Positions 16,324 to 21,279 of a DNA stretch of 43,782 nt are shown piece by piece. The stretch lies in the NCBI GenBank assembly GCA_045653185.1, contig JAZOLQ010000038.1, positions 1-43,782 of the forward strand. Reading direction: 5' to 3'. This stretch comes from Eubacteriales bacterium. Its GTDB lineage: Bacteria; Bacillota; Clostridia; Oscillospirales; CAG-272. Position numbers and translations under genes: made by a program. Every line of letters begins with the position of its first letter. Position 1 is the first letter of the stretch. The notes under the pieces were generated by a model, which did not search any database, was not told the DNA's origin, and was given only the letters and a program-made list of their open reading frames with translations.

Positions 16324-17049
16324 TCACGCTTGATTTTCTGTTATTACCTCTGCTACAAGGCAGGTATCGTTTGCTTCGTTGACTGTTTTAAAATAATATC
16401 TTCCGTCTTTGTTTGCGCCGTAAAACGTCAGTGTGTCGCCGAATGCCGACTCGTGTACAAATTCGAGGGTCATCTCGCGTATTTTCGGTATTTCGTCGAT
16501 TGGCATAAAGTCGCAGAGCATATCGGGATAACGGGTGTTGTTCATGTGCATATTATAGTCGATGTCGGAATATCTGATGTCGCGCTTTCCGAGAATAGTT
16601 ATATCCTGCGCCTCGGGCGGTCTTATCCTTCTCGGCACGTTTATCTCAAGCATCTCATCGGGCTCGACGCCAAGCGAGAAACTGTCGCTCCTTGCAAGCT
16701 TTTTTTCGTCAAGGTCTATAAGAGCCCAAAATGAGACAGCCTCGGCAACAAGCTCGCCGTCCTTGTGGATATCAAAGCATCTGTTAAAGGTATAGCCTCT
16801 GCTATCACAGGTCCAAGTACGAGCGTCTATCGAGTCGTAGGCAAAGAGCGGTTTGTGAAAGACCAGCTTTATCTTGCTCAATATAAACGCGAGTTTTTTT
16901 GTGTCTCTGAGCTCATCTAAGGAGAGGCCTGCGCTGTCAAGCTGGCGGTTTGCGGTCTCCTGCATATAAACGAGCATTTCGGACGGACGAACGTGACGCG
17001 AGGCATCTGTGTCGTGCCATCTTACCTTCATTATTTCTGTGTACTTCAT
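16324..17049 (-). CDS. Acyl-[acyl-carrier-protein] thioesterase
   Basis: 241 aa with a double hot-dog pattern (VRWHDTDASRHVRPSEMLVYMQE... and DIRYSDIDYNMHMNNTRY). Confidence 0.75.
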   Translation of the reverse strand: MKYTEIMKVRWHDTDASRHVRPSEMLVYMQETANRQLDSAGLSLDELRDTKKLAFILSKIKLVFHKPLFAYDSIDARTWTCDSRGYTFNRCFDIHKDGELVAEAVSFWALIDLDEKKLARSDSFSLGVEPDEMLEINVPRRIRPPEAQDITILGKRDIRYSDIDYNMHMNNTRYPDMLCDFMPIDEIPKIREMTLEFVHESAFGDTLTFYGANKDGRYYFKTVNEANDTCLVAEVITENQA

Positions 17050-17078
17050 TTACATTTTTCTCCCGATTTGCTTTACTC

Positions 17079-17107
17079 ATTTTACCACAAAATCTCAAAA
17101 AAATCAA
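17079..17107 (-). promoter_or_regulatory. Extended -10 promoter for the thioesterase gene
   Basis: The minus strand reads TTGATT (17107-17102), a 17-nt spacer ending in TGg, then TAAAAT (17084-17079). Confidence 0.5.
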
Positions 17108-17139
17108 GAAAAAATATATTTTTTTACAATTATTTTATC

Positions 17140-17568
17140 TTATGCCGTAACTATCCCCGGGGGGACGTCTCCGGAAATGCCTTCGCTGGTATCGGGCATT
17201 GTACGCTCGGCGACGGCGCTGGCGTCTCCAAGACCGAAGCTTACGGCAATAGCTGTGTTTACCTCGTTCATAACTCCATCGTCAAGATGCCCCATCTTTT
17301 CCTTTAGTCTGCGTTTGTCAAGCGTTCTTATCTGTTCAAGCAAAACGACTGAATCCTTCGCAAGACCGACCTTGTCTGCATAAATATCGATATGAGTAGG
17401 CAATCGCGTTTTGCCAAGCCTCGAGGTTATTGCCGCGGCAATGACCGTTGGACTGTATTTGTTACCGATATCATTCTGAATTATGAGAACGGGGCGGAGA
17501 CCCCCTTGTTCAGAGCCGACCACGGGGCTTAGATCGGCGTAATAGATATCTCCTCGTTTAACACTCAT
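17140..17568 (-). CDS. mazF: MazF/EndoA (PemK family) mRNA interferase toxin
   Basis: [49 protein letters not shown]...LPTHI...[17 protein letters not shown] aligns closely with B. subtilis EndoA as I recall that sequence. The ATG at 17568 matches the EndoA start, and the ORF-track start at 17616 is a TTG. A ~25-aa C-terminal tail is extra. Confidence 0.85.
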
Positions 17569-17813
17569 TTTTTGTTTACCAAGCCTTTCTGATAGCCTCT
17601 TTATAAAAGAGGTCAAAACTTTTTCCGTACAAGTATATTTTTACCGTGTTTACCCCGTCTTTAAACACGCAAAGAAATATTTGACGTAGGAATTTTTATC
17701 CTATAATATTATGAGAAACGACATGCTACAAAAGTCGTTCCCCTATTATTTTATTTTGGGACTACTGCTTGTGTTAAAAATATAAGGTGAGGAGAATTGA
17801 AGTTTTGTGAGGT

Positions 17814-17849
17814 GAAAAAAGCGGCTGTGCTCAGAGGCCCAGCCGCTTT
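17814..17849 (-). terminator. Rho-independent terminator closing the Zn-ribbon/sigma-like operon
   Basis: The minus strand reads AAGCGGCTG-GGCCTCTGAGCA-CAGCCGCTT followed by TTTTTT. Confidence 0.8.
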
Positions 17850-17905
17850 AAAAATGCCGTCAATAGTGCTTTTGACTAATTCAGTAAAAATTTTTGTCTT
17901 GTATA

Positions 17906-18307
17906 TTACGGTATCTCGTGGAAAGAAGAAGTTGAATTTTGGTTTCTCAGCTTCAGCTCCTCGCCTGCCATAATGAGAGCTCGGCGTCTCATTCTGAAGG
18001 CAGTGCTTCTGCCTATTCCCAAAAGCTCTCCGCAACGCTCTATGCTCTCGCCTTTTATATAGTGATAATAAAGCATAAGCTTTTCATCGGAGTTTTTGAG
18101 CGACATGATAAAATGCCGTATCTCAAACATTCTCGCCCTCGCAAGCGGGGTCTCGCCGTATGCTTCAAAATCCTTTTCGCTTGTATGGAAGTATTCTTTT
18201 TCGTATCGGTCAAGGCGCAACAGCTTTCTGTTCATTTGATACCCGCGCAGATAGTTGTCGGTCCTCTCTATAAGTTTATCTATCTCTATTTTGCTATTCT
18301 TGTCCAT
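17906..18307 (-). CDS. Sigma-70 region-4 type HTH protein (ArpU/phage late-activator-like)
   Basis: ATG at 18307 is preceded by GGAGAAAAA. The protein is 133 aa with a C-terminal HTH (IERCGELLGIGRSTAFRMRRRALIMAG), and its size matches small phage or ICE sigma-like regulators. The ORF-track start at 18337 lacks an RBS. Confidence 0.55.
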   Translation of the reverse strand: MDKNSKIEIDKLIERTDNYLRGYQMNRKLLRLDRYEKEYFHTSEKDFEAYGETPLARARMFEIRHFIMSLKNSDEKLMLYYHYIKGESIERCGELLGIGRSTAFRMRRRALIMAGEELKLRNQNSTSSFHEIP

Positions 18308-18501
18308 TTTTTCTCCGCTATAAGTTCTATATAACAATCACGACAGTACGGTTTTCCGTACGAATATTTTACGATGTCATATTCGCATAAAAAAGCTCCG
18401 CAAACACTGCATTCACATATTTTATCGCCCCGCTCGGCGCTCCTGCCTCTATACGAGGGACAGGCGGGCGGACATAGGTATTTGCCACAATTTCGGCACA
18501 T
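18286..18501 (-). CDS. Small Cys-rich (zinc-ribbon-like) protein, 71 aa
   Basis: ATG at 18501 is preceded by AAGGAG 6 nt upstream. There are 10 Cys residues, including the pairs CRNC, CSVC and CRDC. The gene overlaps the downstream sigma-like gene by 22 nt. Confidence 0.6.
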   Translation of the reverse strand: MCRNCGKYLCPPACPSYRGRSAERGDKICECSVCGAFLCEYDIVKYSYGKPYCRDCYIELIAEKKWTRIAK

Positions 18502-18538
18502 TTTTTTCTCCTTTTAAAGTTAAAATTTTTAATTCTTA

Positions 18539-18567
18539 TTGACAAAATAAAAAAAATGTTTTATAAT
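18539..18567 (+). promoter_or_regulatory. Perfect-consensus sigma-A promoter directed rightward toward the repressor gene
   Basis: TTGACA (18539-18544), a 17-nt spacer, then TATAAT (18562-18567). Confidence 0.65.
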
Positions 18568-18582
18568 TATCTTGTTATAATT

Positions 18583-18611
18583 ATTATATCGCATTTCCGA
18601 AGTATTGTCAA
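18583..18611 (-). promoter_or_regulatory. Perfect-consensus sigma-A promoter directed leftward toward the Zn-ribbon/sigma-like operon
   Basis: The minus strand reads TTGACA (18611-18606), a 17-nt spacer, then TATAAT (18588-18583). Confidence 0.65.
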
Positions 18612-18637
18612 TACGTATTTCGCATTTCATAAGTATT
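18589..18637. promoter_or_regulatory. Operator-like 18-bp direct repeats plus a 10-bp palindrome
   Basis: TCGCATTTCCGAAGTATT (18589-18606) and TCGCATTTCATAAGTATT (18620-18637) are 16/18 identical with starts 31 bp apart. The palindrome AATACGTATT (18610-18619) lies between them. Confidence 0.5.
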
Positions 18638-18665
18638 TATTTAAAGATTATGAAAGAGGTAAAAA

Positions 18666-19295
18666 ATGGACTATAAAAAATTTGAAGCTTTGTTGAAAAG
18701 CTACAACACAACGGTATACAAGGTGTCAAAAGCCACAGGCATAGCCCAATCGACTTTTTCTGATTGGAAGAGCGGACGTTCAACGCCTAAGGCGGATAAG
18801 CTTAAAAAAATAGCCGAACATTTCGGAATAAGCGTAGGATATATGCTTGATTCGGACTTCTATCCCATTTCGGATTTTTCGGATTTCGATGCCTGTCGCA
18901 CCCGTCAAAGACAAGTGCCGATAATAGGCGAGATACGCGCGGGAAGCCCGATAATAACTAACGAGAGTATAATAGGCTACGAGAGCGCAGATATAGATAA
19001 TACCGAAGATTATTTTTATCTTAAGGTGCGCGGCGACAGTATGAAAAACATTGGAATGGTCGAGGGCTCGATAGTTCTTTTTCATAAGCAGCAGTATGCC
19101 GAAAACGGAGATATAGTTGCTTGTCTTGTTGGCGGTGACAGCGCAACGGTGAAGCGTTTCAGGCGGGATCACAGAAATGTGTCGCTTTTGCCCGAGAACG
19201 AGGAATACTCTCCGATAGAGCTTTCTACCGACGATTTTGAGGCGGGAGAGGCAAGGATACTCGGTGTTGCCGTTGAGGTCAAAATAAAATTATAA
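18666..19295 (+). CDS. CI/LexA-like repressor: XRE-family HTH + S24 peptidase
   Basis: 209 aa. The N-terminal HTH_3 region is VYKVSKATGIAQSTFSDWKSGRSTPKADKLKKIAEHFGISVGYML. The S24 elements are Ala-Gly in EIRAGSP, Ser in GDSM and Lys in TVKRF. Confidence 0.8.
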   Translation: MDYKKFEALLKSYNTTVYKVSKATGIAQSTFSDWKSGRSTPKADKLKKIAEHFGISVGYMLDSDFYPISDFSDFDACRTRQRQVPIIGEIRAGSPIITNESIIGYESADIDNTEDYFYLKVRGDSMKNIGMVEGSIVLFHKQQYAENGDIVACLVGGDSATVKRFRRDHRNVSLLPENEEYSPIELSTDDFEAGEARILGVAVEVKIKL

Positions 19296-19305
19296 GGATA
19301 GGAAA

Positions 19306-21279
19306 ATGATAGCAATAAGTGTAAATAAGCTTGCCCTTTCCTTTGGGACTAACGAGATATTCAAGGACGTTTCTTTTGCGCTTAATGAGGGAGACAGACT
19401 TGGAATAATCGGTGTTAACGGTTGCGGAAAATCGACGCTCTTCAAAATTATTATGGGTGAATACGCAGCTGATGAGGGAAGCGTATATATATCAAAGGAT
19501 AAAAGCGTGGGAATACTCCGTCAGGACGATGCCTTTTCCGACTTTGAGAGTGAGGATAAAAGGCTTTCGGCGCTTGAGGTGATGTATCTTTCCTTTAGAG
19601 AGCTTATCGAGCTTGAGAGGAAGCTGAAGGCGCTTGAGGATATTTTGAACACGCGCAATTTTTCACAGGGACGTGACGAGAGCTCTTACGTTTCCGAATA
19701 TACATCGCTCAATGAAAAATTTATCCGTGACGGCGGACTTGAATTCAGAGGAAGATGCCTTTCCACGCTTATGAAGATGGGCTTTGACGAGGAGGCGGCA
19801 AATATGCCCTTTGAGCTTTTGAGCGGCGGTCAGCGCACAAGACTTGCGCTCTCAAAGGAGCTTTGCAGAGAGCCCGATATACTTCTTCTTGACGAGCCGA
19901 CAAACCACCTCGATATAGAAACTCTTGCTTGGCTTGAAAATTTTCTTGCGTCATATAAAAAATGCCTTCTGGTTATATCTCACGACCGTTATTTTCTTGA
20001 CCGCGTTACGAATAAAACTCTTTGTATTGAAAATAAGAGGGCGGCTATCTATAACGGCGGATATACGAAAAGCATGAAACAGCGCGAGATAGACCGAGAG
20101 ATAGCCGAAAGGCATTATAAAAATCAACAAAAGGAGATAGCAAGACAGGAGGCGTATATCGCTCAACAGAGAGCCTGGAACAGAGAGAGAAATATAATCG
20201 CCGCAGAGAGCAGACAAAAGATGCTTGATAAGATGGAAAAGCTTGAGCGTCCAAAGGAAGCTCCGCGTCCTGTCAGCATCAAGTTTTCCTCCTCACTTTC
20301 AAGCGGTAACGACGTGCTTACCGTCAAGGACCTCGCTTTTGGATATTCGGGGAAGGAGCTCTTTCGAGGACTTTCCTTTGTGGTCAAGAAAAACGACCGT
20401 CTCTTTATTGTCGGTCCTAACGGATGCGGAAAATCAACGCTTATAAAGCTTATGCTCTCAAGACTTGCTCCCAAGGAGGGGTATATCGAGTCGGGGTATA
20501 ACATCAAGGTAGGATATTACGACCAGGAAAATCAAAATCTTACCCCTTCAAACACCGTGCTTGAGGAGCTTTGGAATGCGTATCCCACGCTCACCGAGCT
20601 GAAGATACGAAGCACACTGGCTCTCTTCAGGTTTTTTGGAGACGACGTTTTCAAAAATGTGTCCATGCTCAGCGGCGGAGAGAGGGCAAGACTTACACTT
20701 TCAAAGCTGATACTATCAGAGATGAATCTGCTTATTCTCGACGAGCCGACCAACCATTTGGATATCGATTCGCGCGAGGCGCTCGAATTAGCTCTTGACG
20801 CCTTTGACGGAACGATAATAATAGTCTCACACGACCGCTATTTTATATCAAAGCTTGCGACGAGGATAATCGATATGACAGCCTCGCCCGAGTCTTCTTT
20901 CTCGGATATAAGAATAACTCGCAACGCTCAGGCATACGACGAGCTTTGTGATGACAGGGCAAGGCGTGAGCAGCTGCAGGCGGGGAAGAGTGATAGCAGT
21001 GCGCCAGAGGCTTCGGCAGTGCCTCAAAGCTCGGGAGAGCTTACTAACAAGGAGCTGTATCTGCAAAACAAGCAAAACGCGGCTGAACAGAGAAAACAAA
21101 AAAGACGCATTGAGCGTCTTGAAGCAGAGTCGAAGGAGCTCGAAAGCGAGCTCGACTCTATCGAAAAAGAGATGATGGGCGATGCGGCGACCGATTATAA
21201 GCGAGTCGCGGAGCTTGACAGCAGGAAGAACGAGATAGAGGAAAGACTGCTCGAAATATACGAGGAGATAGGGATTTAA
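19306..21279 (+). CDS. ABC-F family ATPase (two NBDs, no TM domain, C-terminal coiled-coil tail)
   Basis: 657 aa. NBD1 has GVNGCGKST, LSGGQRTRLAL and LLLDEPTNHLD. NBD2 has GPNGCGKST, LSGGERARLTL and LILDEPTNHLD. The tail is rich in K, E and R. The gene starts 10 nt after the repressor stop and has its own RBS (AAGGATAGGA). Confidence 0.85.
   Translation: MIAISVNKLALSFGTNEIFKDVSFALNEGDRLGIIGVNGCGKSTLFKIIMGEYAADEGSVYISKDKSVGILRQDDAFSDFESEDKRLSALEVMYLSFRELIELERKLKALEDILNTRNFSQGRDESSYVSEYTSLNEKFIRDGGLEFRGRCLSTLMKMGFDEEAANMPFELLSGGQRTRLALSKELCREPDILLLDEPTNHLDIETLAWLENFLASYKKCLLVISHDRYFLDRVTNKTLCIENKRAAIYNGGYTKSMKQREIDREIAERHYKNQQKEIARQEAYIAQQRAWNRERNIIAAESRQKMLDKMEKLERPKEAPRPVSIKFSSSLSSGNDVLTVKDLAFGYSGKELFRGLSFVVKKNDRLFIVGPNGCGKSTLIKLMLSRLAPKEGYIESGYNIKVGYYDQENQNLTPSNTVLEELWNAYPTLTELKIRSTLALFRFFGDDVFKNVSMLSGGERARLTLSKLILSEMNLLILDEPTNHLDIDSREALELALDAFDGTIIIVSHDRYFISKLATRIIDMTASPESSFSDIRITRNAQAYDELCDDRARREQLQAGKSDSSAPEASAVPQSSGELTNKELYLQNKQNAAEQRKQKRRIERLEAESKELESELDSIEKEMMGDAATDYKRVAELDSRKNEIEERLLEIYEEIGI

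Follow-up and report, generated by a model that had tools for sequence, protein, structure and literature searches.

Chromosomal, phage-derived switches built on S24 repressors, among them PrtR, AlpR, HdiR and the LexA-like proteins of Bacteroidetes, show how DNA-damage sensing is rewired to new outputs. In the PrtR-PrtN/PtrB and AlpR-AlpA modules of Pseudomonas aeruginosa, a chromosomal non-prophage CI-type S24 repressor restrains an adjacent positive regulator. PrtR also restrains PtrB, a small zinc-finger protein that is divergently transcribed, and DNA damage removes the repressor. In coliphages 186 and P2, the promoters for lysis and lysogeny stand face to face, and transcriptional interference is part of the switch. 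HdiR in Streptococcaceae and non-canonical LexA proteins in Bacteroidetes control DNA-repair and mutagenesis genes (PMC8565304). Among phage activators, the Ltr late activators comprise RinA, ArpU and LtrA-C, with DUF1492 corresponding to LtrB (PMC3753634). A solitary MazF, MazF-mx, is known from Myxococcus xanthus, where it is linked to the transcription factor MrpC (PMC4803016). Here, we describe a locus on contig JAZOLQ010000038.1 of an uncultured Eubacteriales bacterium (Oscillospirales, CAG-272; assembly GCA_045653185.1). The whole stretch of DNA that was analysed (43,782 nucleotides, nt) is called the window. Four small genes lie in it side by side: an S24 repressor gene, an oppositely transcribed two-gene operon for a Cys-rich protein and a protein resembling only region 4 of sigma factors (r4-like protein), and the toxin gene mazF. 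An initial annotation had joined all four into one toxin module. We consider it probable that they represent two units, a CI/LexA-type switch (unit 1, 17906-21279) and a separate mazF unit (unit 2, 16324-17703). The features of the switch are:

18539-18567, plus strand: P_S24, predicted promoter of the repressor/ABC-F transcript, TTGACA-17-TATAAT, 12/12 consensus
18583-18611, minus strand: P_cys, predicted promoter of the Cys-rich/r4-like operon, TTGACA-17-TATAAT, 12/12 consensus
18588-18601, minus strand: candidate operator O1, TTCGGAAATGCGAT, within the P_cys spacer, exact site, conserved
18619-18632, minus strand: candidate operator O2, TTATGAAATGCGAA, 31 bp from O1, upstream of the P_cys -35 box and in the 5' leader of the repressor mRNA
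18666-19295, plus strand: repressor of 209 amino acids (aa) with an XRE-type helix-turn-helix (HTH) and an S24 peptidase domain (Pfam HTH_3 and Peptidase_S24)
19306-21279, plus strand: ABC-F ATPase (two ABC_tran domains and ABC_tran_Xtn; NF000355 with 455.7 bits, above cutoff)
18286-18501, minus strand: open reading frame (ORF) of the Cys-rich protein, 71 aa with 10 cysteines
17906-18307, minus strand: r4-like protein, 133 aa, its start overlapping the Cys-rich gene by 22 nt
about 17814-17849, minus strand: predicted intrinsic terminator of the Cys-rich/r4-like operon

The conservation of this switch was followed in two surveys. A pattern-plus-tblastn search with the r4-like protein yielded 39 species-level genomes (L001-L039), all from uncultured Clostridia labelled 'Eubacteriales' or Oscillospiraceae most of which had been sampled from the gut of ruminants and humans. 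A further survey, started from the repressor, comprised 80 loci, about 64 of which contain close S24 orthologues. The arrangement with ABC-F and S24 genes reading in one direction and the Cys-rich and r4-like genes in the other is present in 32 species, the window counted in; in 52 of the 64 orthologous S24 loci, the repressor gene has the r4-like gene as its divergent neighbour. Altogether, the switch was found in roughly ninety uncultured gut Clostridia, and across this large clade of anaerobes it is kept almost base for base.

This degree of conservation is most evident in the promoter region. P_S24 and P_cys face each other, with their -10 hexamers 15 bp apart in the window. P_cys matches the consensus in 12 of 12 positions in 30 of the 32 species and P_S24 in 31, and the distance between the two -10 hexamers is 13-17 bp in 31 of them. 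Taken as a whole, the geometry of facing promoters and operator was seen in 32 of 32 species examined. The initial annotation lists neither these promoters nor the operator repeats, the short junction between the repressor and ABC-F genes or the promoter of mazF. With the hexamers so close, transcription is predicted to start at almost the same place in both directions, and each transcript would traverse the opposing promoter. As predicted from this geometry, a polymerase at one promoter must exclude or collide with a polymerase at the other. The layout is reminiscent of 186 and P2, where promoters for a repressor and an opposing operon likewise converge. In contrast to these phages with tens of bp between the start sites, the start sites of the gut switch almost fall together and both promoters are perfect consensus sequences.

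The predicted repressor target is the palindromic operator TTCGGAAATSCGA, which is positioned inside and upstream of P_cys. O1 is conserved in all switch loci. Many species read TTCGGAAATCCGA(T/A), a near-perfect form of the 14-bp palindrome TTCGGA-AA-TCCGAA; the exact palindrome occurs at few sites, e.g. in L027. In the window, O1 and O2 are the only two sites of this kind. Because the operators are conserved over P_cys in at least 32 species, control of the oppositely transcribed Cys-rich/r4-like operon by the S24 repressor is supported, at the level of predicted sites. Together with the intact cleavage residues described below, these operators uphold the view of the initial annotation that the locus contains a stand-alone, non-prophage switch of the CI/LexA type.

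Seven loci (L027, L029, L030, L031, L033, L036 and L037) have retained the operator upstream of the Cys-rich/r4-like operon without an adjacent S24 gene. The r4-like gene is kept in all seven and is mostly preceded by the Cys-rich gene. In three of the seven metagenome-assembled genomes (MAGs), S24 orthologues are located on other contigs (SVTJ01, JAFTQL01, CAAGKS01). The retained operator and the S24 genes on other contigs suggest that the repressor can act in trans and that the Cys-rich/r4-like operon is its conserved target. In L029-L031 and L033, which have no adjacent repressor gene, a beta-lactamase-fold serine hydrolase of 370-389 aa is always encoded 3' of the r4-like gene on the same strand and might be a local target.

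The repressor contains all residues needed for self-cleavage. Its catalytic domain matches PF00717 (Peptidase_S24) with 90.7 bits, and Ala92-Gly93, Ser125 and Lys163 are invariant or nearly so in two orthologue alignments of 31 and 9 sequences, in line with the complete set of cleavage residues noted at the outset. With this domain, the Ala-Gly site and the Ser-Lys dyad, it belongs to the superfamily of self-cleaving S24 repressors that includes LexA, CI and HdiR. It does not represent a canonical LexA: The N-terminus is of the HTH_3/XRE type and not the winged-helix LexA_DNA_bind domain, and TIGR00498 (lexA) is matched with 103.4 bits, under the cutoff of 110.95, by residues 80-205 in the C-terminal part only. 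All top matches in the PDB are C-terminal domains of LexA. Over its full length, the protein shows 33% identity to the CI-like repressor of phage Lv-1. Judged from these matches, it is a protein of CI architecture with a LexA-like catalytic domain.

Only 10 nt separate the repressor stop codon from the ABC-F start codon, and the two genes are probably co-transcribed, which would couple the repressor to a translation-factor-type ABC-F protein. The ABC-F gene follows the S24 gene in 29 of 32 and in 55 of 64 orthologous loci. In most species of both surveys (L001-L039, L120-L182), the gap between the two genes measures about 10-35 nt.

The opposing operon is closed by a terminator, which had already been called clean: It folds with -21.4 kcal/mol (z = -3.89; -3.9 when rounded) and is followed by six U residues. 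Its second gene encodes a protein that had been annotated as a sigma-70 region-4/ArpU-like factor. The first half of this designation is supported by structure prediction. The AlphaFold model (predicted local distance difference test, pLDDT, 90) shows one long N-terminal helix and then a region-4-like helix bundle at residues ~49-115, and Foldseek matches it to the region 4 domains of WhiG, SigL, SigD4, FliA and SigB. The second half is not, as no NCBIfam match to ArpU (TIGR01637) was obtained for the r4-like protein at E <= 0.1. The sole Pfam match above threshold is a marginal one to DUF1492 (PF07374, 23.3 bits, cutoff 21.5), with Sigma70_r4_2 remaining below its cutoff. Among orthologues, that of L155 reaches 19.7 bits with DUF1492, which is below the cutoff, and that of L036 has no match. 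The PHROG families matched are 36 and 248, transcriptional regulator/activator. A sigma70-ECF (extracytoplasmic function) model scores 13.4 against a cutoff of 42.9. Since the modelled protein lacks region 2, it is not a sigma factor. The family is small, with 174 representatives at E <= 1e-3 among 1.84 billion proteins; between species, its members are 52-93% identical and share 32 invariant columns.

The genes 3' of the operon vary and include mazF, a HAD hydrolase gene, the gene for the beta-lactamase-fold protein and others, one of which we take to be citrate-synthase-like. A conserved downstream target gene was considered and rejected, as the downstream genes differ between sub-clades.

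The following mechanism can be envisaged. Before induction, O1 and O2 would be occupied by repressor dimers, which shut P_cys and leave P_S24 free to fire. Repressor bound to these sites would cover about +15 to +60 of the transcript that encodes it and might thus limit expression of both repressor and ABC-F. Such autoregulation is proposed because both operators fall into the initial ~60 nt of the repressor mRNA. Self-cleavage at Ala92-Gly93 would then be induced by a trigger, which by analogy with LexA, CI, HdiR and PrtR is most likely a RecA filament but could also be of another kind. Once P_cys fires, head-on collision or promoter occlusion should depress P_S24 and lead to a sharp, possibly bistable transition. 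The output would be the region-4-only protein, together with the Cys-rich protein where present. The former would most likely be a promoter-specific activator or a co-factor of RNA polymerase that acts in the manner of phage Ltr/RinA-type proteins or of PrtN on targets elsewhere in the genome, outside the window.

Several points weigh against this picture of a regulatory switch separate from mazF. Cleavage, operator binding and promoter activity are all inferred from sequence. No gene came to light as a target of the r4-like protein. A position-weight scan of 839 kb, i.e. the window and 119 loci, revealed no convincing S24 operator beyond the switch copies; an operator-like match within a histidine-kinase gene (L103) was put down to chance. 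The Cys-rich gene is an accessory part that is missing in about half of the wider S24/r4 loci. Some LexA-like proteins, e.g. IrvR, reportedly do not use RecA (PMC7101444). Finally, the adjacency of the switch and the mazF-thioesterase block in six species, discussed below, exceeds pure chance if these were independent events.

Compared with the known systems, the switch appears to be an undescribed variant of the chromosomal S24 switches of the PrtR/PrtN, AlpR/AlpA and HdiR types. It shares with the PrtR and AlpR modules the logic of an S24 repressor placed over an adjacent regulator. It differs from them in its output, a sigma-region-4-only protein instead of PrtN or the AlpA antiterminator, in the lack of pyocin or lysis genes nearby, in promoters that face each other, in its Gram-positive anaerobic host and in the repressor gene being in an operon with an ABC-F gene. 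With phage modules composed of CI and an Ltr activator it has in common a CI-like S24 repressor over a small activator whose C-terminal domain resembles sigma region 4. Unlike these, it does not reside in a phage and has no terS or late operon downstream, no member of its r4-like family turned up in collections of phages, plasmids and viral contigs, and the putative activator would be under direct and not indirect control of the repressor.

A more far-reaching reading, which we consider less likely than not, is that a family-level clade of uncultured gut Oscillospirales has in the S24 repressor and the region-4-only protein a master switch of its own. In such a non-canonical SOS-type or stress-decision circuit, the output would be a sigma fragment with a Cys-rich partner in place of a repair gene, and this fragment would retarget or modulate RNA polymerase. 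Its target would open a view of a conserved programme for stress or differentiation in bacteria that have so far been without genetics. That the regulon of this master switch extends to the clade-wide antitoxin-less mazF appears very doubtful.

A broader role of the repressor is compatible with the two-unit picture and would widen the regulon. The S24 protein might be the global SOS repressor of the lineage, a LexA of non-canonical type that, like HdiR and the Bacteroidetes proteins, binds DNA through a CI-type domain, and the Cys-rich/r4-like operon merely an adjacent target. We regard this as rather unlikely, with arguments on both sides. Its catalytic domain scores closest to LexA (103 bits with TIGR00498, LexA proteins at the top in the PDB), its gene is core and vertically inherited, and in some genomes it apparently acts in trans. 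There is a precedent as well: HdiR and the Bacteroidetes LexA proteins (PMC8565304) similarly combine a host-resident XRE/CI-type domain with a self-cleaving S24 domain (Ala-Gly, Ser, Lys) and are inherited vertically across a clade. A slight hint in the same direction comes from the Cheo-type LexA box (CGAAC-N4-GTTCG), which was found neither in the window nor in 839 kb of related loci, a sample with few SOS genes. However, in these 839 kb the S24 operator occurs only at the switch copies, and the recG and priA genes of the window have none upstream. In contrast to HdiR and the Bacteroidetes LexA proteins, the only demonstrable target is thus far a regulator operon, and the operator TTCGGA-AA-TCCGAA is a different one.

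The Cys-rich protein raises the question of whether a signal other than DNA damage is involved. Its N-terminal motif MCxxCxxxxCPxxCPxY, by which the ORF was defined, is conserved; the lineage of the window adds a second CxxC...CxxC pair. An ORF with this motif is located 5' of the r4-like gene in most of the 39 loci; of 52 loci in the wider set, 22 have one. The protein belongs to no Pfam, PHROG, NCBIfam or PADLOC family. A homologue search returned only four relatives, because such short genes are rarely called, and the AlphaFold prediction from five sequences is unusable (pLDDT 59.7). Long forms of the protein (L137, L139, L142, L166, L175, L177, L178) have an extra C-terminal helix with '...D(V/L)LRICE(I/V)...LL', which is absent in the window protein.

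One could imagine that this protein is an anti-factor of the region-4 protein and senses redox state or a metal, comparable to zinc-binding anti-sigma (ZAS) factors that act on region 4. The spacing C-x2-C-x4-C-x3-CP resembles ligand sets for metals or Fe-S clusters, and the Foldseek matches of the r4-like protein include region 4 domains bound by the anti-sigma factors RslA, RsdA and RsiW. RecA-independent LexA-like proteins are on record (IrvR; PMC7101444). Nevertheless, we consider such a non-damage signal quite unlikely. The Cys-rich protein has neither the ZAS motif HxxxCxxC nor a match to any family, its predicted structure is uninformative, and roughly half of the wider loci do without its gene. 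Cleavage site and catalytic dyad of the S24 repressor are fully conserved.

Immediately beyond the operon terminator lies the second unit, whose features are:

17140-17568, minus strand: mazF, EndoA orthologue of 142 aa with a low-complexity C-terminal tail of 27 aa
16324-17049, minus strand: acyl-acyl carrier protein (ACP) thioesterase (Pfam)
17636-17666, minus strand: putative mazF promoter of the sigB/sigF type, GTTTAA-N15-GGTAAAAATA, unique in the window with 0 expected by chance
17687-17703, no strand assigned: palindrome AGGATAAAAATTCCT, conserved in upstream alignments of many mazF loci, a candidate binding site for a regulator that precedes the mazF promoter

The assignment of the toxin as a close EndoA/MazF orthologue was confirmed. 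It matches PemK_toxin (PF02452) with 126 bits and, over residues 1-115, the EndoA structures of Bacillus subtilis and B. anthracis with 158 bits. For comparison, 80 orthologous mazF loci were collected (L040-L119; 73-98% identity). In at least 32 of 80 species, the thioesterase gene lies 3' of mazF on the same strand. The tails of the MazF proteins in these loci are rich in Ala, Pro, Thr and Ser and contain a recurring AAVA(S/T) motif.

It was also correctly noted that a mazE gene is lacking beside mazF: No antitoxin-like ORF abuts the gene in the window or in any of 80-82 mazF loci, and the 82 loci contain no conserved upstream peptide. A tblastn search with MazE sequences detected nothing near mazF. 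Of the two hallmarks of a type II MazEF system, the PemK/MazF-fold toxin is present and an adjacent antitoxin in the same operon is not. Two candidates for a hidden antitoxin were rejected. The ORF at 17576-17668 (minus strand) was ruled out, as it comprises 30 aa with a GTG start and no ribosome-binding site and is fused or frame-shifted in L001; the apparent conservation of a 'KIYL' peptide is due to the conserved promoter DNA. A fused antitoxin in the C-terminal MazF tail is unsupported: Tails vary from 0 to ~115 aa, and many orthologues have none. An EndoA-type MazF without adjacent antitoxin in more than 80 species provides a clean test case for how orphan toxins stay harmless.

The putative mazF promoter fits the SigF -10 pattern GGnnAnAHTR. 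It also matches the SigB consensus GTTTAA-N15(+/-2)-GGGTAT (PMC9847131). The strict motif was found in 39 of 82 mazF upstream regions versus 0-3 of 3960 control windows. The palindrome AGGATAAAAATTCCT is situated ~25 nt upstream of this promoter and is identical in L001. Folding of the mazF leader is insignificant (z = -1.7). On the plus strand of the conserved leader, 17681-17709 contain a promoter-like sequence, TTGACG-17-TAATAT, which is directed towards the 3' end of the r4-like gene and could yield an antisense transcript. By these comparisons, mazF is a clade-wide orphan EndoA orthologue with its own predicted promoter of the alternative-sigma type. MazF-mx is the closest precedent, as both lack an adjacent mazE. 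Unlike EndoA/EndoAI of B. subtilis, mazF of the window is not preceded by a gene for a ribbon-helix-helix antitoxin, and in contrast to both EndoA/EndoAI and MazF-mx its conserved partner is a thioesterase gene and its promoter is of the sigB/sigF type.

The initial annotation had proposed that repressor cleavage releases the sigma-like activator, which in turn switches on the antitoxin-less mazF, so that the toxin is restrained by transcription. Such activation could occur in cis in the window or in trans in relatives. In favour of it, an adjacent antitoxin is absent throughout the 82 mazF loci, the mazF-thioesterase block and the switch are neighbours in six species, and the conserved palindrome upstream of the mazF promoter could bind a regulator. 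Furthermore, a solitary MazF under a transcription factor has a precedent in MazF-mx and MrpC (PMC4803016). The comparison with relatives speaks against it and makes it very unlikely, since the four genes are not found together as one unit. In roughly 90-170 species-level genomes surveyed for this adjacency, mazF adjoins the switch in only six. It is co-directional with the operon in the window and in L001. In the other four (L051, L144, L155, L157), the order is mazF > thioesterase > [MarR >] < r4, i.e. the block is convergent with the r4-like gene. Among the 39 r4-like loci obtained by tblastn, mazF is beside the switch only in L001; among the 80 mazF loci, the switch is present only in L051; and three of the ~64 close S24 orthologue loci carry the mazF-thioesterase block, each time convergent with the r4-like gene. 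Seven MAGs have mazF on one contig and the switch on another. Even in L001, the closest relative, whose r4-like protein is 93% identical, a HAD hydrolase gene is inserted between operon and mazF. The 215-nt mazF leader is near-identical there and follows the HAD gene, not the operon.

The predicted regulatory elements agree with this separation. The operon ends in a terminator, no S24 operator was found in the mazF upstream regions by the 839-kb scan, and the widely conserved mazF promoter of the sigB/sigF type would require a full sigma factor. As the r4-like model lacks sigma region 2, the protein cannot alone direct this promoter. Therefore, neither the single four-gene layout nor the sigma-like protein as driver of the orphan mazF withstood the comparison. 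The adjacency in six species is attributed to residual synteny in one sub-clade and an inversion. It is apparently not operonic and leaves some room for a functional link. Within the convergent sub-clade, the r4-like gene shares its 3' end with an overlapping MarR-family gene (L051, 4454-4906; L155, 2707-3228), and the ORF 5' of the r4-like gene has only two cysteines. In our view, two independent chromosomal units abut by chance in the lineage of the window, with the mazF-thioesterase unit vertically inherited and, as predicted, independent of the switch. For the four-gene toxin module, the outcome is negative: The module is unsupported, and what had been taken for it would be a chance juxtaposition.

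The 43.8-kb window represents core chromosome. Its genes encode housekeeping functions such as the thioesterase, ABC-F, PriA, RecG, GatA/GatB, formate-tetrahydrofolate ligase (FTHFS), RsmB and ABC exporters. The four small genes are all present as ORFs in this environment, as described in the initial annotation. No integrase, phage or mobile-element genes were found in the window, which agrees with the earlier statement that phage genes are lacking nearby; integrase, replication, structural and lysis genes, which define a prophage lysogeny module, are replaced here by housekeeping neighbours. A scan of the whole window with Rfam revealed no family. PADLOC did not match MazF, the r4-like or the Cys-rich protein, and gave only weak HTH-only matches for the repressor; the locus does not correspond to any known defence system. 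Searches of INPHARED phages, PLSDB plasmids and IMG/VR contigs yielded no relative of the r4-like protein, and a search of INPHARED phages yielded none of the Cys-rich protein. The site of the switch next to the ABC-F gene is kept in most species, and across the loci the identity of the S24 protein to that of the window co-varies with the identity of ABC-F (r = 0.94), which indicates vertical descent. Based on this co-variation, the core-chromosomal window and the absence of r4-like relatives from phage, plasmid and viral-contig collections, the switch is, so far as genome comparison can tell, chromosomal, vertically inherited and not a phage.

It is extremely unlikely that the switch is a decaying relic of a lysogeny module from a prophage or integrative element (a CI repressor with a late activator of the Ltr/DUF1492 type) without present host function: The CI architecture with 33% identity to phage CI-like repressors, the PHROG matches of the r4-like protein and its marginal match to DUF1492, i.e. 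the LtrB late activator, would fit such an origin, but promoters and operators are kept perfect in ~32 species, the catalytic residues are conserved in S24 orthologues, the r4-like protein retains its 32 invariant columns at 52-93% identity across species, the module co-diverges with ABC-F, and neither protein of the operon has relatives in the phage collection, nor the r4-like protein any among plasmids and viral contigs. More distant relatives of the repressor were observed in a Lachnospiraceae MAG (L187, 3580-4492), where two S24-type genes, whose products are 43-53% identical to the window repressor, are arranged head to head.

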